The notes under the pieces: model-generated
Told to the model about the DNA's origin: nothing
Database searches by the model: none
What the model saw: the letters and a program-made list of their open reading frames with translations, nothing else
From: Armatimonadota bacterium
Lineage (GTDB): Bacteria > Cloacimonadota > Cloacimonadia > Cloacimonadales > TCS61
Assembly: GCA_030612605.1 (NCBI GenBank)
Contig: JAUWNO010000001.1
Span: 1-24,370, forward strand
Length of the DNA: 24,370 bases
Direction of reading: 5' to 3'
Made by a program: the position numbers and the translations under genes
Part shown: positions 5,934 through 24,370 of the stretch, piece by piece
Numbering within the stretch: the first letter of the stretch is position 1
How the letters are laid out: the number at the start of each line of letters is the position of its first letter

Positions 5934-6662
5934 ATGAAAATTATAGAAAAAGAAGGTAAATCTACTTCGGAGATAATTGCCAACTTTATGCAGGAATATA
6001 AAATGGACCTGGATAATTTCAAATTTGAAGTTATTAAAAAAGGCTCTCCGGGATTTCTGCATTTGTTTGGCTCCACTCCAACAAAAATACGCTTTCTCGT
6101 TCCTGATGTGCAGGAACAATTAAGGAATTATACTGAAACACTTTTGAGCATGATGAATGTTTCTTCTTCCAATATTGATATAACCTATAAAGATAAAGCA
6201 TATTTCGTTGATATAACCGGAGTAGATAATGCCGGTTTTATTATTGGAAAGGAAGCAAAACTTCTTGATAGCATTCAGCATCTTTTGAACCAGATGATAA
6301 GTAAACAGGAGAAGAAACAACTTCGTGTGAAAGTGGATGTAGATAAATACCGGGAAAGGCGAAAAATCGCTCTTCTGGGAAAAGTGAAAAACGCAGCAGA
6401 AAAGGTGAAAAAAAGAGGGAAAAGCATTACCCTGGAACCACTTCATGCTGCTAATAGAAGGATTGTTCATCAGTTTATAGAACGTGATAAAAAAGTGCGC
6501 ACCATGACAATTGGTGAAGGCGAATTCAAGCGAGTTGTAATCTTTCCTGCTTCCGAAAATAAACCTAACCTGGATAAACCGGAACAAAAAAATCAGCAAC
6601 GAACCAGTCTTCGTTACTCTACGCCACGGCAGGCAAAACAAACAAAATCCAACAAAAAATAA
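5934..6662 (+). CDS. jag: Jag/EloR (KhpB) RNA-binding protein with Jag_N, KH and R3H domains
   Basis: IIGKEAKLLDSIQHLL (KH), VDVDKYRERRK, LEPLHAANRRIVHQ (R3H), GEGEFKRVVI; follows yidC. Confidence 0.93.
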   Translation: MKIIEKEGKSTSEIIANFMQEYKMDLDNFKFEVIKKGSPGFLHLFGSTPTKIRFLVPDVQEQLRNYTETLLSMMNVSSSNIDITYKDKAYFVDITGVDNAGFIIGKEAKLLDSIQHLLNQMISKQEKKQLRVKVDVDKYRERRKIALLGKVKNAAEKVKKRGKSITLEPLHAANRRIVHQFIERDKKVRTMTIGEGEFKRVVIFPASENKPNLDKPEQKNQQRTSLRYSTPRQAKQTKSNKK

Positions 6663-6758
6663 AAAGTTCGTTGTTGTTAGTGTTTGTTAGTTGCTAAAAA
6701 ATCTTTTGCAGGTTGAAAGGTTCTGGGTTCTGGGTTAATGGATTAGGTGGCTAAATAG

Positions 6759-7562
6759 ATGCAGCAAATCCAAATCGGAAAAATTCTTTGTGCTGTCGTT
6801 TCTGCTGGAAATTATTGGGCAGATGCTGGTGCTGCTATGGGAGTTCTTCCCAGAACTTTGTGGAAGAAATTCTTAGATGTAGATGAAAAAAACCGAATTA
6901 AATTAGAATTAAACTCTCTTTTGCTCCAATTTGATGGGAAGAATATTCTCATTGATACAGGCATTGGAAATAAACTCACAAATAAATTAAGAAAAATTTA
7001 TCATCCTTCTGATTTCAAACTGCTGGAAAATCTCTCTAAACTTGGAATCTCGCGGCAAAATATAAATTTCGTGATTCTCACACATCTCCATTTTGATCAT
7101 GCTGGTGGAGTAACCTCTATTTTTAATGAGAAAAAAGAACTGACCTTTCCCAATGCTGTTCATCTTATTCAGAGAAAAGATTGGGATATTGCCAAAGATC
7201 CTGATGAGCTTAACAAAGCTTCATACAATTTTTCTGCTGACCTCGAACTGCTTGAACAGACTGGAAATTATAAACTTCTGGATGGTGACTTTTTTTTAAC
7301 TCCGGAAATTGAATTGATTTTAGTTGGGGGTCATACTGAGGGAATGCAGATTGTGAAAATCGAAAGTGAAGATAACCTGGCATATTATGCGGGAGATATT
7401 ATTCCACTGGATGCGCATCAACACCTGATTGTAACCACATCTTATGATGTTTGCAGAAGAGAAACCGTTGCTATTAAAAAGAAAGTTTTGCAGGAACTCA
7501 AAGACAAAAAAGGTGTTTTATTTTTACCTCACGATGCAAAGAAGAAGATTATTAAATTTTGA
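6759..7562 (+). CDS. Metallo-beta-lactamase-fold hydrolase (YtnP/AHL-lactonase-like)
   Basis: ILIDTGIG, THLHFDHAGG, GGHTEGMQ, GDIIP and PHD motifs. Confidence 0.88.
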   Translation: MQQIQIGKILCAVVSAGNYWADAGAAMGVLPRTLWKKFLDVDEKNRIKLELNSLLLQFDGKNILIDTGIGNKLTNKLRKIYHPSDFKLLENLSKLGISRQNINFVILTHLHFDHAGGVTSIFNEKKELTFPNAVHLIQRKDWDIAKDPDELNKASYNFSADLELLEQTGNYKLLDGDFFLTPEIELILVGGHTEGMQIVKIESEDNLAYYAGDIIPLDAHQHLIVTTSYDVCRRETVAIKKKVLQELKDKKGVLFLPHDAKKKIIKF

Positions 7563-7593
7563 AAACCTCATCTATAAATAATCCACCTTTTTC

Positions 7594-7763
7594 AGACTTG
7601 ACTTAATAACTCAGCTTGCTGAGGAATTGAGTTAAGAATGAAAAAGTAATCAGCAATTCTTATTCTCAGACATGACTTATTCCGTTAGTAATTGAGTTAA
7701 GAATGAAAACGTAATCCGCAATTCTTAAGTCAATTCCACCTGCGGCGTTTTTAACTCAAGTCT
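7594..7763. repeat. MITE-like palindromic element with 13-bp terminal inverted repeats and an internal 38-bp direct repeat
   Basis: AGACTTGACTTAA (7594-7606) versus TTAACTCAAGTCT (7751-7763): inverted, 1 mismatch. Direct repeats 7625-7662 and 7690-7727 match at 36/38. Hairpin 7690-7735 has 15-bp arms with 1 mismatch. Confidence 0.6.
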
Positions 7764-7791
7764 TGCTTAGTGAGCACAAGCTTCTACTCTA

Positions 7792-7846
7792 TCATTCTCG
7801 TGAAAGCTTGTCCTCAACTTGATTGGGGACGGGAATCTACAAAAAA
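7792..7846 (+). repeat. Dispersed ~55-bp repeat (TCATTC..GGGAATC core with inserted hairpin); inverted copy at 11579-11634
   Basis: tcattctcgtgaaagcttgtcctcaacttgattggggacgggaatctacaaaaaa matches the reverse complement of 11579-11633 with about 4 differences. Confidence 0.85.
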
Positions 7847-7852
7847 TGGATT

Positions 7853-7924
7853 TTATAATGTTTGGCGTGTGCGGTGCTCTTCCTGCTTTTCTTCTTGCTT
7901 GGCTGCACGAGCTGTTTGTTAGGC
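7853..7924 (-). mobile_element. Putative attC site (downstream end of cassette), with R' degenerate
   Basis: Minus strand reads TGA-TTCTGT-GCCTAAC (R''-type RYYYAAC, 6 nt after the stop)-AAACA-GCTCGTGCAGCC...GCACACGC-CAAAC-ATTATAA (GTT core changed to ATT). Confidence 0.55.
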
Positions 7925-7930
7925 ACAGAA

Positions 7931-9475
7931 TCATTTCAATAATAACATTTTTTTCGATAGTAACACACCTTCATCAGTTTTTATTCGATACAAATAAATA
8001 CCTGATGATACCTGATTTTGAAAGTTATCGGTTCCGTCCCAAATAATGGGCATTTGATTTTGACAGTTAAAGGTTCTGATCTTTTCTCCCTTGATATTGA
8101 ATATCTCAATAACAGGATTTGCGATAGTAACAGATAAATCGTAACTGATTGTTGTTCCTGAACTGCGACCGGCTCCTGACGGTTTGAAAGGATTTGGGTG
8201 ATTTGTAAGAATGTATTTTACTAAACTAATTTCTTCATTTGTTGAACTACCTCCGGAAAGACCATAAAGAGTAGCAGAATTTACTATAGTTGGATGATCA
8301 CCATCGTTTAGCAAAATTTCGTCTTCACCATCATTATTGAAGTCACCAATATTGCAGAAGTATTTGTTTGCATTATGTATTATATCAGGATTTGTGTCAA
8401 AACTATCTGAACCATAAAGTATATTAATAATACCTGTTCCCGAATTATAATATAAAATGTCTTCATACTCATCATTATTAATATTTGTGTATTCTAAATA
8501 ACCTGATAATGTATAATCTAGATTTAAAATACAATTCTGATTTCCTAAAAAAATTCCTACAGGTGATATAATAACATCTTCAAAGCCATCATTATTAATA
8601 TCTCCTTTGGCATAACCAATTTTATGTGTTCCTCCTAAAATAAAAGTTTCATCTGAGACAAAATCCGGTATAGTATCAATCTCAATTCCTCCGAGATAAA
8701 CCTCTAAAAAGACAGGATCACTCATTGTTTCATCTCTACTTACAATTAAATCGTCAAATCCATCTCCGTTAATATCACCAACTGCTCTAAATCTACCAAA
8801 TTCATCCAAAACATTTCCTTGTATCTGGAAATCAGGAGTCGTGCTAAGTTCTTCACCACCCAGAAAAATCTGAACCAAACCATTCCAGTTGTAGGATGGT
8901 CCTTCTCCCCAAGTTAACAAATCATCAAATCCATCTCCGTTAAAATCATAGCCACCGTTAAAACCTTTATAGTTTAGACCTGTAGGATCTGGAATATAGT
9001 CTTCACCTTGCAGAATAATTTCAGGGTCAAGATCAATTTCTTCTCCTCCAAAGCATATATAGACATCACCAGGATCAAATGAATTTGTACATACAGAATA
9101 TACAATATCTTTATAACCATCATCATTTAGATCTCCACCCCAAGAAATCGCATCACTACCAAAAGGAACTTCTATTTCAAAATTATATGTAGTATCTGGA
9201 ATCTCATTTCCCATAAAAAATTGGAATCTATAAGGATCACCAGGATACCAATGAATAAAATCATCATAGCCATCATTATTCAGATCGCTACCATCGCTGT
9301 TTAAATTGACACACCTAAAGATTACTTCTCCAGGAATTTCCCAAGTAACAATTTCTTCTAATGTGTCTTGTGCATGCAGAAAGGAAAAAGGAAAAAGGTA
9401 AAAGGCAAAAGTAACAAAAATCAAAATAGATATTTTTTTTTTCGATAAATCGGAATTTAACAAAGTTTTTAACAT
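7931..9475 (-). CDS. Secreted FG-GAP (integrin-alpha-like beta-propeller) repeat protein with C-terminal FlgD-Ig/T9SS-type-A-like sorting domain
   Basis: Start placed at ATG 9475 (GGAGG RBS, signal peptide ending LHA-QD). Repeated DLNNDGYDD / GDLNDDGYKDI / DFNGDGFDDL / GDINGDGFDDL / GDINNDGFEDV / GDFNNDGEDEI motifs. C-terminus NHPNPF..TTISY..IFNIKGEKIR..WDG..SSGIYLYRI..KKMLLLK. Confidence 0.88.
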   Translation of the reverse strand: MLKTLLNSDLSKKKISILIFVTFAFYLFPFSFLHAQDTLEEIVTWEIPGEVIFRCVNLNSDGSDLNNDGYDDFIHWYPGDPYRFQFFMGNEIPDTTYNFEIEVPFGSDAISWGGDLNDDGYKDIVYSVCTNSFDPGDVYICFGGEEIDLDPEIILQGEDYIPDPTGLNYKGFNGGYDFNGDGFDDLLTWGEGPSYNWNGLVQIFLGGEELSTTPDFQIQGNVLDEFGRFRAVGDINGDGFDDLIVSRDETMSDPVFLEVYLGGIEIDTIPDFVSDETFILGGTHKIGYAKGDINNDGFEDVIISPVGIFLGNQNCILNLDYTLSGYLEYTNINNDEYEDILYYNSGTGIINILYGSDSFDTNPDIIHNANKYFCNIGDFNNDGEDEILLNDGDHPTIVNSATLYGLSGGSSTNEEISLVKYILTNHPNPFKPSGAGRSSGTTISYDLSVTIANPVIEIFNIKGEKIRTFNCQNQMPIIWDGTDNFQNQVSSGIYLYRIKTDEGVLLSKKMLLLK

Positions 9476-9570
9476 AATAACCTCCGTTTTATTAACACCC
9501 TCTATATACATATCCCCAAAATCATCAAAATGTGACTTCACCACTCGATATTTTTTTCACTTTCTGCTGT

Positions 9571-9634
9571 GCCTAACATCTATATGCCACGCCAATTATT
9601 TTATGGCGTCTAACCAACCTATAGTTACAACGTT
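9571..9634 (-). mobile_element. Putative attC-like site (upstream end of cassette) ending in GTTAGGC
   Basis: Minus strand reads AACG-TTGTA-ACTATAGG...ACGCCA-9nt-TGGCGT-GG-CATATAG-AT-GTTAGGC, an imperfect hairpin with a GTTRRRY core. Its flank is the exact complement of the 7917-7928 core. Confidence 0.55.
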
Positions 9635-9673
9635 TTATGGTGTGACAATTTTAATAAATTATTTATCATACAA

Positions 9674-11386
9674 CTACTCATTTTGATTTTCCAATCTCAG
9701 CTTTCCTGAATTAACCGAATTATACCTCCACTCCGGAATAAAAAAAGCAGCTTTCTCATCATAAGGTCTGTATCTTCGGAAATTGATTTTCATTTCTTTT
9801 GTGTCTTCATTAAATCCGATTTCATTTAAAGGAATCTTAATTTCAACCATCCAGCTATTATCGAAAATCCTGGTTTGAACCTCAAAATTCCCATTCCACT
9901 CTTTATCATATTTATTCTCTTTCAAATCTGTTCTCATATCCCAGATCGCTTCATTGGGATTAACATAAAATTGATAAATTACGTTTCCATCAGCAGATAA
10001 TAAAAATCCCATAGAATCATCATAATAAACATCCTCATCTCTGCCTGTAAAATCAGCTTTCAGGCTGTCTGTATTTTCCTCTGTGCAAATGGTTGCGATA
10101 TAAAGAAATTCGTCATTATGCAGAAAGAAGACCTGCGTTTTATCTAAATTGGAAAGCTCCCCTTCTTCGTCTCCGAACTCATCAACAACAAATGCTCCTT
10201 TCTTTTCTTTCTTAGTAATCATACCATCAATTTCTGGAATCTTCTTAACTTCTGTACTTTGGATTATCCTGGTGATATTCAATGGTTTTTCATATATGAA
10301 TTGCTTTTCTCTTCCGAATGGATAAACAAATTTCAGGATAGGAAGAGGGAAAAAGTTTCCTTGTTTGATAATAATTAATTCCGTTTTCAGAGTATCTCCG
10401 GGTTGGATGGAAACAGGAATTACAGATTCATAAACTATCCAGTTTTCTTTTATTAGAATTTCTATGTTTTCATTAATGGTTTTTTCAGTATCATTATAAA
10501 TGCTGATTTCAATATTTAATTCATCTGGTTTGGAATCATCCTCAGTTCTGCTTTTCGTTTGAATAAATTTTTTGCGAATATTATAAGAGAGTTGCTCTTC
10601 CTCAATTGTAACAAGGTCTTTAGCAAACATATTTCCGGATTTTATGAGAGAAGTGTGAATTTTATCTGCTTCCACTTTGCACCACAGATATTGATAGAAA
10701 ATTCCCAGCTCGTCATTTTCTGCCGGCATTCCACCACCTGAACTGCCCACCAGATAATATTCGATTCCATCAATTTCATTGTACGCATATTGATGCCAGT
10801 GTCCTGTGAAAACAGCATCGACATTATACTCTTTAAATAAATCATGCATGAAATCTTCATTTCCCTCTGCAACCGCATTTGCCCAAAATGGTTTATGCAT
10901 GAAAACATAAATATTGGTTTTATCTTTATTCATTTGCAGGTCTTCTGTGAACCATTCAATCTGGATTTCATCCATTTCATCATAGTTGGAAACTGTAGAA
11001 TTATCTAAAATAATGAAATGTGTGTTTCCATAATCAAATGAATAATACGGGTCATTTCCGGTTTTCTCTGTAAATGTTTTTGCTGATGCTTCATCATAAA
11101 TATCGTGATTCCCCGGTATGTAATAAACAGGACATTCAAAAATTTTCATTGTTTCCATAGGAACGTCCCAATCGCTCAGAATTCGTCCGTCTTCAACTAA
11201 ATCTCCCACAGTGACCACAAAATCCGGACGAAGATTGCTCATCTCTTTCACTACCAATTCAAAAGCTTCCTGGTCTGCTCCACCGGTTCTGTCACCTAAA
11301 ATAGCAAAGTGAAAATTGTCTTCTGCGATTAACGTGAATGTTAATAATAAGATAATAAATATTATTATAATTTTAAAATTTCTCAT
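9674..11386 (-). CDS. Secreted calcineurin-like metallophosphoesterase with C-terminal CBM9-like sugar-binding domain
   Basis: Signal peptide; ILGDRTG, VGDLVE, PGNHD, FMHKP and TGHWH motifs; C-terminal T-V-F-H-D-FLYIA..D..YYDDSMGFL..YQFYVNP..W-VEIKIP..INFRR pattern typical of CBM9-like domains. Confidence 0.8.
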   Translation of the reverse strand: MRNFKIIIIFIILLLTFTLIAEDNFHFAILGDRTGGADQEAFELVVKEMSNLRPDFVVTVGDLVEDGRILSDWDVPMETMKIFECPVYYIPGNHDIYDEASAKTFTEKTGNDPYYSFDYGNTHFIILDNSTVSNYDEMDEIQIEWFTEDLQMNKDKTNIYVFMHKPFWANAVAEGNEDFMHDLFKEYNVDAVFTGHWHQYAYNEIDGIEYYLVGSSGGGMPAENDELGIFYQYLWCKVEADKIHTSLIKSGNMFAKDLVTIEEEQLSYNIRKKFIQTKSRTEDDSKPDELNIEISIYNDTEKTINENIEILIKENWIVYESVIPVSIQPGDTLKTELIIIKQGNFFPLPILKFVYPFGREKQFIYEKPLNITRIIQSTEVKKIPEIDGMITKKEKKGAFVVDEFGDEEGELSNLDKTQVFFLHNDEFLYIATICTEENTDSLKADFTGRDEDVYYDDSMGFLLSADGNVIYQFYVNPNEAIWDMRTDLKENKYDKEWNGNFEVQTRIFDNSWMVEIKIPLNEIGFNEDTKEMKINFRRYRPYDEKAAFFIPEWRYNSVNSGKLRLENQNE

Positions 11387-11430
11387 ATAAGCTCCCCTAA
11401 AAAAAACTTGAGTTCTCCCGCTTCCTGCCT

Positions 11431-11457
11431 GTCATTCCCACGAAAGTGGGAATCTAC
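11431..11457 (+). repeat. ATTCCC-N8-GGGAAT palindromic repeat (dRS3-like, GTCATTCCCACGAAAGTGGGAATC)
   Basis: Perfect stem ATTCCCAC/GTGGGAAT with a GAAA loop. Confidence 0.8.
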
Positions 11458-11547
11458 GAAAAGAGAACAGAAAATAGTTTCCTGCTTTTTTAGCTTGTTC
11501 CCAAACTTTTAACCCGTTGAATAACAGGTCTGTTCGGGAATACAATG

Positions 11548-11573
11548 CGTTACGAAAGAGGACTTTCGTAACG
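11548..11573. repeat. Palindrome CGTTACGAAAG-agga-CTTTCGTAACG
   Basis: Perfect 11-bp inverted repeat with a 4-nt loop. Confidence 0.75.
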
Positions 11574-11578
11574 AGCAA

Positions 11579-11634
11579 TTTTTTGTGGATTCCCGTCCCC
11601 AATCAAGTTGAGGACAAACTTTCACAGGAATGAC
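11579..11634 (-). repeat. Second, inverted copy of the 7792-7846 repeat
   Basis: Reverse complement reads gtcattcctgtgaaagtttgtcctcaacttgattggggacgggaatccacaaaaaa. Confidence 0.85.
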
Positions 11635-11642
11635 AATAAGTT

Positions 11643-11680
11643 AAAACTTCGGAAGCCTTTAAAGACTTCCGAAGCTTTTT
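11643..11680. terminator. Hairpin CTTCGGAAG-10nt-CTTCCGAAG flanked by A/T tracts; REP-like and/or intrinsic terminator of the SBP gene
   Basis: Perfect 9-bp stem 11647-11655/11666-11674 with AAAA and TTTTT flanks, about 12 nt after the SBP stop. Confidence 0.55.
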
Positions 11681-11691
11681 ACTGATTCCTC

Positions 11692-12441
11692 TTAAACTCC
11701 CCGCTTTTTCAAAATCTTATCAAAAGTCCCGTCTTCTTTTATCTTGTCTAAAGCAGCCTGTAATTTCTTAACAACCGCATCAGAAGTATTTTTATTGATG
11801 GCAAGATAATATCCGCCTTTGGTGAGTTCTTCCAGGATAAATACTCCATTGATAACTTCTTCTGGTTTAAAGCCGGCTTCCTTTACAATATAACTTGCAG
11901 TTACATCCGGCATGGGCCACAAATCGATCTCTTTGTTCATCAGCTTTTCAAAATTGGCTTTGTTGTTTTCAGACACGATTAACTGCTCATCAATCTCGAA
12001 ACCTTTAGATTTGAAAAAGCTTTCCCGTGCATCACCCGGAGTGATCCCGATTTTGTACTTTTCCATTTCTTCTAAAGCTAAGATTTCAATATCCTCTCTT
12101 TCTGCCAGAACAAAAACTGAATAATTCGTGGGAGCAATTGTTCCCACCCATTTGAAAAGTTCTTCCCTGTCCGGTCTGCGGCTTGTTGAAAATAAGATGC
12201 AATTTTTTGTGCTCAGAGCAGTTTCATAAGATTCTTTCCAGGGATGAACCTGAACCTCATAAGATATTCCTGCTTCGGTTAAAATGGCTTTCACAACCTC
12301 TGTTGATAAGCCAGCTATTTCTCCATCCTTTGTAAAATTAAAAGGTGGAAATTCCTCTGTTAACACCACAAGATGCTGTTTGGCGCATGACAAAATAAGC
12401 ACCATGCAAAGTAACAGAACAAATTTAATTCCTGCTTTCAT
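11692..12441 (-). CDS. Family-3 (amino-acid-type) extracellular solute-binding lipoprotein
   Basis: Start placed at ATG 12441 (GGAGG RBS, lipobox LILSC). Motifs TEEFPPFNF, GEIAGLSTEVVKAIL, PWK, RREELFKWVG and LQAALDKIKEDGTFDKILKK. Confidence 0.88.
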   Translation of the reverse strand: MKAGIKFVLLLCMVLILSCAKQHLVVLTEEFPPFNFTKDGEIAGLSTEVVKAILTEAGISYEVQVHPWKESYETALSTKNCILFSTSRRPDREELFKWVGTIAPTNYSVFVLAEREDIEILALEEMEKYKIGITPGDARESFFKSKGFEIDEQLIVSENNKANFEKLMNKEIDLWPMPDVTASYIVKEAGFKPEEVINGVFILEELTKGGYYLAINKNTSDAVVKKLQAALDKIKEDGTFDKILKKRGV

Positions 12442-12690
12442 TTTTTCCCTCCGTTTTTTTTCTCCAACTATTTTGGATTTTTTTCTTTCTTTTTTACTCC
12501 CAAAACTTTCTGTCCAGACTACGATATTGCACAGCTTCGCTGATGTAGATATTGGAAAGAACTTCCGTAGAAATACCGAAAAGCCAACTCGGGCTTCCAC
12601 TTATAGAGTTAAAAAATACAATCAGTCCGAATACTGAATATTTTTAACACAATGTCCCTGACTGTCCACTTAAAAAACAGGTTAGTCCAA

Positions 12691-13453: not shown

Positions 13454-13637
13454 TTGTAATTTTACCTCTATTATTCAACTTTGTTAATGCTAATATACAT
13501 TATGCTGCTTGTTTATGCAGTATAGGAATAATCATCTAATATGACTTAATTAATAAACTACTTAACTTATTGAACAACATACAAAAAAATCGAATCATTT
13601 TCTATGTCAATATTATTTCCTGTAACATTTTTAAAAT

Positions 13638-15176
13638 TTATTCCCAAAATTTCCTGTCCAAACTCCGATATTGAACTGCTTCGCTGACGTGAGCTACTGT
13701 TATATTTTCACTTTCTTCCAGATCAGCAATTGTACGGGAAACCTTTAAAATTCTATCATAAGCCCTGGCAGAAAGTCCCATCTTATCCATTGCCATTTTG
13801 AGCACATTTTTACTTTCATCATCCAATTGGCAATATTTTCTTATCTGTTTGGGATTCATCTGGGAATTACTGTAAATTTTTTCAACTGCAAATCTTTCCA
13901 ATTGGATGTCTCGTGATATATTCACTCTTTGCCTGATACTTTCGGATTTCTCTCCGGTTGGAAGTCCGCTGAGTTCTTCATATTTCACAGCAGGAACTTC
14001 CATGTGAATATCGATCCTATCCAGAAGCGGACCGGAAATCCGGGAGCGATATCTTTGAATATTGGCAATCGGACATGAACAAGTGTGTCCTTCCACATTG
14101 CTGCCGAAATATCCACACGGACAAGGATTCATGGAAGCAACCATCATAAACTTAGCAGGAAATTCCAGGCTTTGAGTAGCTCGTGAAATAGTTACAACCT
14201 CATCTTCAAGCGGCTGGCGAAGAACTTCCAACACAGATTTTTTAAATTCCGGCAATTCATCCAAAAAGAGAACTCCATTATGAGATAAAGATACTTCTCC
14301 GGGTTTGGGATAACTTCCACCGCCAATCAGGGCAACATCGCTAATTGTGTGATGCGGAGAACGAAACGGACGACTGGTTACAACTCCCTTTCTGCTACCG
14401 ATCAAACCTGCAACAGAATGTATTTTGGTGGTCTCCAAAGATTCTTCCAAAGTCAATCCCGGCAGAATTGTAGGAATACGTCGGGCTAACATTGTTTTCC
14501 CAGAACCTGGGGGACCGAGCATAAGCACATTATGTCCGCCTGCTGCTGCTACTTCCAAAGCTCTTTTCACATGAAACTGCCCTTTCACATCATACATATC
14601 AACCGGACTTTCATTCAGTTGAGCAAAAATTTCCTTTTTATCTACTTTGACAGGTTCAATCTCGATCTTTCCTTCCAGAAAGTTCACAACTTCATTCAAC
14701 GAAGTTGCGGGAAAAACATTTAATTCTTCAATAATAGCAGCTTCTTTTGCGTTCTCATAGGGAAGAATAAGACCATCCAGTTCATCTTTCCAGCAAGCTA
14801 TGGCAACCGGCAGAACTCCACGAACAGGTCGCAAATTGCCGTCTAAAGATAGTTCTCCTATAAAAGCATATCTTTCCATTTTATTTGATTTCATCTGGTG
14901 CAAAGCTAAAACTAAAGCTAATGAAGTGGGAAGGTCCAATGCCACGCCATCTTTTTTAATATCTGCAGGAGCGAGATTAACAGTATATCTGTGGGTCGGA
15001 AACCTGAAACCGGAATTCTTAATTGCTGCTGAAACTCTATCCCGGCTTTCTTTCACAGAATTGGATGGTAATCCTACAATGTTAAATTTGTACAATCCAC
15101 CTTTAACATCTGCTTCCACAATGATCTGCTCAGCATCGATTCCCTGAATTGCATACGAAATTGTTCTGCCGTACAT
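13638..15176 (-). CDS. comM: YifB/ComM family Mg-chelatase-like AAA+ ATPase
   Basis: Start placed at ATG 15176 (AAGGAG RBS). Motifs VGLPSNSVKESRDRV, VNLAPADIKK, GELSLDG, GPPGSGKTMLARR, RPFRSPHH, LFLDELPEF, SMNPCPCG, ISGPLLDRID and SARAYDRILKVSRTIADL. Confidence 0.95.
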   Translation of the reverse strand: MYGRTISYAIQGIDAEQIIVEADVKGGLYKFNIVGLPSNSVKESRDRVSAAIKNSGFRFPTHRYTVNLAPADIKKDGVALDLPTSLALVLALHQMKSNKMERYAFIGELSLDGNLRPVRGVLPVAIACWKDELDGLILPYENAKEAAIIEELNVFPATSLNEVVNFLEGKIEIEPVKVDKKEIFAQLNESPVDMYDVKGQFHVKRALEVAAAGGHNVLMLGPPGSGKTMLARRIPTILPGLTLEESLETTKIHSVAGLIGSRKGVVTSRPFRSPHHTISDVALIGGGSYPKPGEVSLSHNGVLFLDELPEFKKSVLEVLRQPLEDEVVTISRATQSLEFPAKFMMVASMNPCPCGYFGSNVEGHTCSCPIANIQRYRSRISGPLLDRIDIHMEVPAVKYEELSGLPTGEKSESIRQRVNISRDIQLERFAVEKIYSNSQMNPKQIRKYCQLDDESKNVLKMAMDKMGLSARAYDRILKVSRTIADLEESENITVAHVSEAVQYRSLDRKFWE

Positions 15177-23408: not shown

Positions 23409-23786
23409 CTATTCTCCAGCGAGTCTTTTTTTAATCAGCTCGTTTAGTTTATTGATGTCGAAAGGTTTGAAAACAACATCCTGCAAACCATCTTTTTTGG
23501 ATTTCACAACAATGTGTTCCGGGTCATAACCGAAACCTGTCATCATGATTATAGGCAGGTTTTCGTCGTATTCTTTTGTACGCGAATAGAGTTCATATCC
23601 ATCCATATCCGGCATAGCAATATCTGTGAGCAGAAGATCGATTCCTCCTTCCATGATAATGCTTAAAGCTTCATAACCGCCACTGCTACAGATGACTTCA
23701 ATATCTTTGTAACTCTCTTCCAATTCCATCTTAAGAAATTCTGTTACGGATTTTTCATCATCTACAATTAATATTTTTGAAATCAT
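23409..23786 (-). CDS. Stand-alone response regulator receiver domain
   Basis: ILIVDDE, LLLTDIAMPDMDG, IIMMTG and VFKPF; no output domain. Confidence 0.93.
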   Translation of the reverse strand: MISKILIVDDEKSVTEFLKMELEESYKDIEVICSSGGYEALSIIMEGGIDLLLTDIAMPDMDGYELYSRTKEYDENLPIIMMTGFGYDPEHIVVKSKKDGLQDVVFKPFDINKLNELIKKRLAGE

Positions 23787-23802
23787 AACCTTTCCTGTTT
23801 AA

Positions 23803-23907
23803 AGCATTTTAGCATTTCAGCATTTTAGCATTTCAGCATTTCAGCATTTTAGCATTTTAGCACTTAGCATTTAGCATTTTAGCATTTCAGCATTTAGCAT
23901 TTTAGCA
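23803..23907. repeat. Tandem 7-8-bp repeat AGCATTT(T/C), 13 full units plus a partial
   Basis: Units read directly; one unit is AGCACTT and three are 7 bp. Confidence 0.95.
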
Positions 23908-24056: not shown

Positions 24057-24070
24057 TATATTCTTCTAAG

Positions 24071-24137
24071 AGCTAACTGGCTAACAAGCTAATGGCTAAC
24101 CAGCTAAAGGCTAACAAGCTAACGGCTAACCAGCTAA
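24071..24137. repeat. Tandem GCTAA-core repeat, 9 units with ~15-bp higher-order periodicity
   Basis: agctaact ggctaaca agctaat ggctaacc agctaaa ggctaaca agctaac ggctaacc agctaaa. Confidence 0.9.
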
Positions 24138-24370
24138 ATTCTACAAATTTTACAAATTCCTTCGTTTATTTTTAAGAATGACTTTTTAAAAATCTCATTA
24201 ATTTTTTCAAGTTTATTTTTTTTAAGATGCTGATAAATTATCCGGCGTTCTGCATACTGATTCTTTTCATGAGCCAAATATTCGTTATCCTTATATTCAA
24301 TATCAAATTCAGAAAAATGCGTTTGTTTCCCATCTTTAGTAATTTTTATAAGCATTCCATTTTTTATTTC
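24134..24370 (-). CDS. 3' end of an unidentified CDS running off the window edge
   Basis: Frame is open from the window end (EIKNG-MLIKITKDG...) to a stop at 24134; same strand as its neighbours; no motif recognised. Confidence 0.45.
   Translation of the reverse strand, partial: EIKNGMLIKITKDGKQTHFSEFDIEYKDNEYLAHEKNQYAERRIIYQHLKKNKLEKINEIFKKSFLKINEGICKICRI

Follow-up and report, generated by a model that had tools for sequence, protein, structure and literature searches.

An integron-like cassette, probably mobile, with a secreted FG-GAP protein as cargo in a probable Cloacimonadota family

Described systems and the present locus

The described systems that come closest to the locus considered here, a gene for a 514-aa secreted protein on contig JAUWNO010000001.1 of assembly GCA_030612605.1, are the 'reverse' sedentary chromosomal integrons, in which the integrase gene is co-oriented with the cassettes, as in Treponema denticola. 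Integrons are held to need an extra domain of the integrase IntI, which reads extrahelical bases of the folded attC site. The pdif (Xer) modules of Acinetobacter plasmids have 28-bp duplex XerC/XerD sites (11-6-11), which are of the same kind at both ends. Where attC sites stand with no integrase within 4 kb, the attC model of IntegronFinder is used to class one such site as a SALIN (single attC site lacking integron-integrase) and two or more as a CALIN (cluster of attC sites lacking integron-integrase) (Cury et al. 2016; IntegronFinder 2.0, PMC9024848). Integrons have been reported as nearly absent in the Bacteroidota/FCB (Fibrobacteres-Chlorobi-Bacteroidetes) group (PMC9024848), and among the simple tyrosine recombinases an 'integron-like' subgroup has been described in which the members without the insertion are given no function or sites (Smyshlyaev et al. 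2021, PMC8138268). We found no description of the present cassette system in the literature.

The window, by which we mean the whole stretch of 24,370 nt that was analysed, is the entire contig C351 of an assembly (G000) that comprises 593 contigs and 2.8 Mb, has 34% G+C and is 81% complete. We consider it likely that the 514-aa gene is a mobile cassette belonging to a lineage-wide, integron-like system of site-specific recombination in what is probably a family of Cloacimonadota, from which 62 genomes were compared. As to the phylum, a look-up of YidC indicates Cloacimonadota. Two elements recur in this system and are named here E2, an attI-like entry site ahead of the cassette, and E3, an attC-like site at its end.

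Several features are shared with known integrons. As in the reverse sedentary integrons, a recombinase gene can stand ahead of a candidate entry site, with co-oriented cassettes behind it that each have a terminal structured imperfect palindrome. As in sedentary integrons, the apparent crossover lies beside a TTA core, a cassette begins with bases that complement the first arm of the site at its own end, and the content varies between strains. Unlike integrons, the candidate recombinase lacks the IntI-specific insertion and is accompanied by an apparently catalytically dead paralogue, the core of E3 is ATTA rather than GTTRRRY, and its loop, variable in integrons, is conserved and rich in purines. 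Complementarity at the R-box extends over 10-12 nt here compared with 7 in integrons, the E2 entry sites are multi-copy and mostly orphan, and the cassettes are scattered in arrays of 1-4, many of them large (type IX secretion system (T9SS) cargo of 0.5-1.1 kaa, or several genes). The window resembles a SALIN or CALIN in having one attC-like site and no integrase, although the site was called here by a lineage model, and it differs in that the cassette has an identifiable attI-like entry site. The likeness to the 'integron-like' recombinases (PMC8138268) lies in the candidate enzyme P0001, which scores best on the XerA/integron-integrase and IntI models, just below their cut-offs; the difference from their description is that a member without the insertion is here tied to cassettes and sites. 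With pdif the system has in common discrete modules bounded by inverted recombination sites and Xer-type recombinases in trans, but its two ends differ from one another (E2 and E3), measure 60-105 nt and include one with a covarying hairpin. No 11-6-11 dyad was noticed on reading the window junctions.

The cassette, its two sites and the evidence for movement

An earlier, sequence-only reading of this DNA had pointed to a perfect 12-bp inverted pair around the gene, and to a GTTRRRY-type and an RYYYAAC-type core within it. Both are borne out: TGTTAGGCACAG occupies 7917-7928 and is met as its exact reverse complement in 9567-9578, and on the minus (coding) strand GTTAGGC (9577-9571) lies upstream of the 514-aa gene and GCCTAAC (7924-7918) begins 6 nt past the TGA stop codon (7933-7931). 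The 12-mer occurs twice in the 2.8-Mb assembly, both times at this gene. By itself, the inverted pair is no more than would be expected by chance, with 15 perfect 12-nt inverted pairs no more than 2.5 kb apart found in the window compared with 17.7 ± 6.4 in dinucleotide shuffles; it becomes meaningful because one arm abuts the end of the conserved E2 and the other is the first arm of E3. The same reading placed both cores at the end of 60-70-bp hairpins, which was not upheld given that the downstream site folds with only -4.1 kcal/mol (z = +0.97), which does not surpass shuffled sequence, and that E2 has a 6-bp inner hairpin alone. Taken overall, the pair, the cores, the open reading frame (ORF) and its ribosome-binding site (RBS) stood, but the paired hairpins and the proposed decay of R' (see below) did not.

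Positions 7856-7953 of the window are multi-copy within the genus and include E3. Across the family, E3 opens with a variable arm that ends in CTAAC. Past a 3-nt spacer comes one side of the stem, then a purine-rich loop of conserved sequence, then the returning side of the stem, CCAAAC and ATTA. The window copy has the same elements, with ..CCTAAC as R'', the 3-nt spacer, a stem on either side of the purine-rich loop AAGCAAGAAGAAAAGCAGGAAGA, then CCAAAC and ATT(A). The returning stem carries one bulged base, and similarity among the copies stops after ATTA. Pairing of the stem is preserved despite total sequence change between subfamilies, whose stem words are CAGCT/AGCTG, CGTGT/ACACG, AGCCT/AGGCT and ACACT/AGTGT. 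In the family as a whole, 91.9% of stem cells are paired, with double (compensatory) changes in 7 of the 9 pairs, and the covariation score is 0.519 compared with 0.247 for shuffled controls (0 of 500 as good), whilst slid controls collapse. A covariance model built without the window copy ranks the window E3 fifth best of about 20 sites in G000, and covariance searches place E3 in 44 of the 62 family genomes, with a maximum of 78 sites per genome and, on contig C13 of G024, four within 9 kb. A search of the 24-kb contig with the lineage model gives a single E3, in agreement with the earlier view of the cassette as solitary. The distal core ATT is nearly invariant across the family, with A as the base preceding TTA. 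The ATT at 7859-7857, which had been taken for an R' decayed from GTT, is the E3 family consensus and is therefore not decay. When E3 is compared with what defines an attC, its R'' (GCCTAAC) fits RYYYAAC, ATTA does not fit GTTRRRY, and the loop is conserved rather than variable.

E2 is 60-105 nt in length, and its recurrence was first seen in contig C498 (for the sequence ending at 9571). Its core reads GTAAC-TATAGG-TTGGTTAG across copies, followed by a short variable hairpin and GGCATAnAnATGTTA, and a long hairpin usually precedes it; in the window GTAAC-TATAGG-TTGGTTAG is followed by a 6-bp hairpin and then GGCATATAGATGTTA, and the upstream hairpin, at 9633-9676, is decayed and sets in at the metallophosphoesterase stop codon. 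A six-copy profile gives 7 copies of E2 in G000, BLAST gives matches in 21 of the 62 family genomes, and an alignment of 29 distinct copies holds 2.0 bits of information at TTA and about 0.1 bit at the following base. Approximately one-third of E2 copies have an Xer/IntI-like recombinase gene or remnant directly 5': the stop codon of a full-length tyrosine recombinase lies 50-70 nt before E2 in G000:C341, G049:C93, G053:C3 and G017:C337 (genome and contig), about 8 further copies follow a C-terminal recombinase remnant, and the others, including that of the window, are orphan. We read the upstream core not as the remnant of a preceding attC but as the crossover end of E2, a distinct attI-like element. 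E2 as the attC of a preceding cassette was considered and rejected, there being no cognate start for any of the 7 copies.

The claim that the gene is a cassette with the anatomy of the integron type was supported: its start complements the first arm of the 3' site that it carries, with 10 of 10 positions agreeing between the start and R'' of the window cassette. For the family, we compared the 7 nt after the TTA of an upstream site with the 7 nt before the TAA of the next E3 in 18 successive-site pairs. Complementary positions numbered 86 of 126, against 56 ± 4.8 with permuted arms (P<1e-5), and with the commonest sequence class excluded there were 53 matching positions against 28.8 ± 4.3. The words that covary in this way include GGCACAG (window), TGTGAAA (C44, a three-gene cassette), ACACCAA, GCAGAAA, TCGGCAA, GTAGCAA and GCAACAGC, and single cases with a start/arm match of 9-11 nt are seen in C44, C589, G014:C38, G016:C11, G015:C82 and G049:C93. 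The inverted pair of the window is one instance of this family-wide rule, which is the signature of an integron cassette. The start of a circularised cassette completes the R-box of its own attC.

Comparison with relatives and metagenomes provides the evidence for movement. In the same-genus contig G014:C66, 91% identity over 1.9 kb runs through the metallophosphoesterase gene and E2 and ends at 9574 (the A of GTTA), past which an unrelated gene of 180 aa is followed by an E3 of its own; the arm of that E3 fits the start of its cassette at 8 of 10 positions. One contig of sequencing run X2 terminates exactly at 9574. On the other side, G016:C29 has the distal flank in common with the window but another terminal site, upstream gene and cassette, and contigs with other E3 copies from 4 sequencing runs diverge from the window at 7855/7856. 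Homologous cassettes (60-67% aa identity) with the same left boundary, TTA/GGCACA (a slash marks the boundary), and the same leader occur in metagenome contigs L194, L195, L197 and L198. The sites upstream of these four cassettes differ (..CCATTA/, ..GCATTA/, ..CCGTTA/ and an E3), as does the DNA beyond ATTA/. L210, a further metagenome contig, has a gene tail that is 96% identical, but it diverges within the gene and looks chimeric and was therefore left out. Neither the empty-site joint (9574 to 7856) nor the circle junction was present in contigs of four cold-seep/sediment runs over 6600-11800, where cover from sources other than that of the window is patchy.

In the mechanism that we propose, the ends of the cassette would join in a circular intermediate, in which its start would pair with the R'' arm and complete the folded E3. 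A tyrosine recombinase would exchange strands immediately before TTA, at (G/A)/TTA, between E3 and E2. The candidate for this role is the pair encoded on contig C341 of the same assembly. One of its members is an Xer/IntI-like enzyme of 359 aa, taken to be active, that lacks the IntI-specific domain; the other, a conserved paralogue, has lost both catalytic Arg residues. The catalytically dead partner could restrict the reaction to a single strand exchange, as in integrons.

The E3 of the window has a left arm of subfamily 1 and a right arm of subfamily 2, and forms 4 of the 9 consensus pairs compared with 7-9 in most copies. As a single strand, it folds no better than shuffled sequence. In the homologous cassettes subfamily 1 supplies both E3 arms. 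In the window E3, the right arm and flank resemble the terminal site of G016. The likely origin of this chimeric E3 would be recombination, through the conserved loop, with a resident terminal site. With an E3 stem that combines two subfamilies in this way, the window cassette is probably now hard to excise, and it would be a poor substrate if folding is required. The earlier suggestion that the cassette is locked may therefore be true by way of a chimeric, poorly pairing stem, but not through decay of R'.

The cargo protein matches the Pfam families FG-GAP_3 (46.4 bits) and FG-GAP (44.1 bits), both over cut-off, and its tail scores 22.4 bits against TIGR04183 Por_Secre_tail, for which the cut-off is 23, and terminates in a KKMLLLK-type motif that is common to many cassettes. 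Many E3 sites follow genes with a terminal T9SS tail, which supports the earlier proposal that secreted proteins are shuffled as cassettes in this lineage. The gene has its own RBS, as had been noted, with GGAGG 5 nt ahead of the ATG, and the leader sequence is kept in homologous cassettes of metagenome contigs L194, L195, L196 and L200. No recombinase gene is present in the window, which is integrase-free as previously stated. Rfam (at gathering thresholds) and tRNA scans of the window gave no matches, and a scan for sigma-70 promoters and terminators over 7560-9700 gave nothing above shuffles. Coordinates are collected in Table 1.

Table 1. Features of the cassette and its surroundings in the window
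Feature	Coordinates	Strand	Remarks
Gene cassette, ~1.72 kb	7859..9576	-	101-nt leader, ORF and E3; bounds from E2/E3 conservation
Cargo gene, 514 aa	7931..9475	-	signal peptide, FG-GAP/VCBS repeats, probable T9SS type A C-terminal sorting domain
Cassette leader	9476..9576	-	RBS GGAGG at 9481-9485 (plus-strand numbering), 5 nt before ATG
Cassette-start arm TGTTAGGCACAG	9567..9578	-	exact reverse complement of 7917-7928; putative future R' arm in circular form
R'' arm CTGTGCCTAACA	7917..7928	-	first arm of E3, complementary to cassette start
GTTA junction	9574..9577	-	E2 conservation ends and cassette starts; putative crossover at G/TTA
Distal junction TTA	7856..7858	-	conserved chromosomal flank beyond
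E3, attC-like, ~69 nt	7857..7926	-	covariance model R1 from 18 other copies: 63.2 bits, E about 1e-12 to 1e-14
E2, attI-like	9571..9676	-	core 9571-9632; nhmmer profile of 6 copies, 62.7 bits
Metallophosphoesterase gene	9674..11386	-	Pfam Metallophos 62 bits; occupies recombinase position of complete platforms; conserved with E2 in G014

Candidate recombinases and rival explanations

A complete platform is found on G049:C93, where a dead paralogue (278 aa) and an active recombinase (378 aa) are followed, in one direction, by E2 and three cassettes: a gene of 1124 aa with E3, one of 903 aa with E3, and three genes with a weak E3. Start/arm matches there are 9-11 nt long. The recombinase pair and E2 are also found together on G000:C341, G053:C3 and G017:C337. 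At G000:C341:7458-9640 (L008/L009) a conserved gene pair, encoding a dead paralogue and directly after it the active enzyme, stands before E2, and the pair itself can be seen in at least G049, G010, G046, G060, G053 and G017.

The recombinase of G000:C341, P0001 (359 aa), has the full catalytic set of residues. Against the XerA/integron-integrase model (cut-off 220) it reaches 216.9 bits, against TIGR02249 (cut-off 265) 212.7 bits and against PRK15417 (cut-off 435) 135.6 bits. When it is aligned with VchIntIA (2A3V), chain residues 180-246 of the latter, which hold the IntI-specific domain, are without counterpart, and archaeal XerA aligns end to end. In P0002, encoded directly upstream of P0001, the first catalytic Arg is replaced by T or S and the second by K, with identical substitutions in G049, which belongs to another genus. 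Because both catalytic Arg residues are lost, with the same changes in another genus, P0002 looks like a conserved non-catalytic partner. Nothing in G000 exceeds the IntI cut-off, but there is a candidate recombinase on C341, which by the curated models and its alignment to VchIntIA is not an IntI. E3 is present in 21 of the 22 genomes with a long recombinase of this short type compared with 23 of the 40 without one, counts in which related genomes are not independent.

The alternative that needs the most careful interpretation is that this is an ordinary integron cassette. E3 would then be the lineage-specific attC of a canonical IntI, either missing from the 81%-complete assembly or lost, E2 would be no more than a preferred target of a secondary or attI-like kind, and the short pair would have some other job. 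We regard this as unlikely, but a number of observations speak for it and against our own view of the enzyme. Canonical IntI proteins exceed the TIGR02249 cut-off (416-447 bits) in G015, G003, G013 and G046, and a partial IntI in G053 brings the count to 5 of 62 genomes; that of the same-genus contig G015:C71 is intact and has the IntI-specific region, and on G053:C175 an E3 begins 10 nt past the intI stop codon. IntI reads the structure of attC, not its sequence. P0001 lacks the insertion of ~40 residues that IntI uses to read the folded attC, about two-thirds of E2 sites, the window one included, have no adjoining recombinase gene, and several E3-bearing genomes have neither type of recombinase. 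Many E3 sites stand singly, and several kb around them hold no start that matches; the recombinase is assigned through its adjacency to E2 and its co-occurrence with E3, and the case for recombination itself comes from sequence comparison. Set against a canonical enzyme, however, IntI was not found in G000 and is absent from the E3-rich genomes G030, G048, G050, G056 and G058, which are 91-98% complete. G003 has an IntI and no E3, four of the five IntI genes in the family have no adjoining E3 array, the arrays begin at E2 beside the short recombinase pair, and E3 has A ahead of TTA where GTTRRRY has a conserved G. Since the E3-richest near-complete genomes are without IntI, four of five IntI genes are without an E3 array and G003 has IntI without E3, the short pair is favoured, and we consider that of C341 to be most likely the enzyme, acting in trans, with a canonical IntI in trans kept as a serious rival.

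Two further explanations would remove site-specific recombination of cassettes altogether. E2 and E3 could be dispersed intergenic repeats of a REP- (repetitive extragenic palindromic) or terminator-like kind, with a coincidental inverted pair and a gene that is ordinary chromosomal DNA. It is true that chance alone would give a 12-nt inverted pair within 2.5 kb in this AT-rich window, that E3 always lies after a stop codon, as a terminator would, and that many copies are singletons. The complementarity between start and arm is nevertheless systematic and covaries across cassettes, the boundaries of conservation are sharp to a single base, the content of the locus changes between relatives exactly at those boundaries, homologous cassettes are found in different contexts, and there is no T-run after the E3 stem, all of which makes this already disfavoured explanation very improbable. 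A small transposon with terminal inverted repeats of 7-10 bp and a TA or TTA target duplication would account for the inverted termini GGCACAG and CTGTGCC, flanked as they are by TTA and TAA. The termini, however, vary by cassette (GGCACAG, GCAGCAA, TGTGAAA, ACACCAA and others), unlike those of transposon families, the variable unit takes in E3, which is outside the inverted termini, and no transposase is present; we give this explanation almost no credence.

A broader proposal can be made, which we put forward tentatively and without going so far as to call it likely. This is that integron-type capture may have evolved, or may persist, without the IntI domain, with a heteromeric Xer-like pair, one member of which is dead, joining a folded ATTA-core site to a multi-copy attI-like site, and that this, rather than canonical integrons, may be the main cassette engine of the Cloacimonadota, and perhaps of the wider FCB group, trafficking large T9SS surface proteins and defence genes. 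Were the short pair the enzyme, it would represent a second solution to single-site gene capture and a natural test of the need for the IntI domain, as well as a route for the exchange of T9SS surface proteins and defence genes among uncultured anaerobes. Were a canonical IntI the enzyme, the attC family would still be new, in having ATTA as its core, and its entry site would be a separate one present in multiple copies.

Related loci and neighbouring repeats

A recombinase-plus-site layout that matches E2 can be seen in another phylum, in Bacteroidetes bacterium UKL13-3 (CP012155.1; L118, L121, L122), where three chromosomal copies of a related recombinase gene have behind them, in each case, a long hairpin, then a box of the CTATAAGCTAGTTA type and a stretch conserved as far as CATTA. 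Cassettes with start/arm complementarity were sought in UKL13-3 and gave matches at chance level only, and our claim is therefore kept to the family of the window. Within that family, the canonical intI at G053:C175:1-1100 (L234) is possibly frameshifted and has its E3 10 nt after the stop codon, as if the integrase were itself cassette-borne.

The metallophosphoesterase gene, E2 and the cassette are enclosed by a 56-nt inverted repeat (93%), at 7792-7847 on the plus strand and 11578-11633 on the minus strand. This repeat belongs to a unit of ~148 nt (11488-11635) resembling a miniature inverted-repeat transposable element (MITE), with a nested hairpin and a GTTACGAAAG/CTTTCGTAAC hairpin. The MITE-like family is found in 12 of the 62 genomes, and the unit is missing at the same spot in G015:C50 and inverted in G014:C66. 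We considered whether the 56-nt repeats might be transposon ends or inversion sites of the whole segment, and rejected this because they are part of an independent MITE-like repeat that is absent in G015, inverted in G014 and present elsewhere without E2 or E3. Where bases of the unit's outer stem have been substituted, G-U pairing is kept on one strand alone, which hints at an RNA.

On the distal side of the cassette, the 368-nt gap between it and a gene for a hydrolase of the metallo-beta-lactamase (MBL) fold holds two tandem 41-nt copies (93%; 7622-7727), 65 nt apart, each with a TAAGAAT..ATTCTTA hairpin. The 3' end of the MBL-fold gene itself (7356-7572) is duplicated around ~1.7 kb of extra DNA in G016:C29 and G014:C99, which suggests that the end of this gene is targeted by an integrative element. 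Between the Jag/KhpB and MBL genes, 6634-6707 is a multi-copy repeat present in all three same-genus genomes with dozens of matches. On the other side, a 54-nt direct repeat (85%; 12493-12546 and 13637-13690) copies the 3' end of a comM-like gene and encloses a DUF6338 gene in G000 and a 463-aa P-loop gene in G014:C66, representing a second variable island with att-like flanks. Near the end of the contig there are tandem arrays at 23786-23895 and 24064-24138, with an 8-nt unit AGCATTTY and a 15-nt unit GGCTAACNAGCTAAN.

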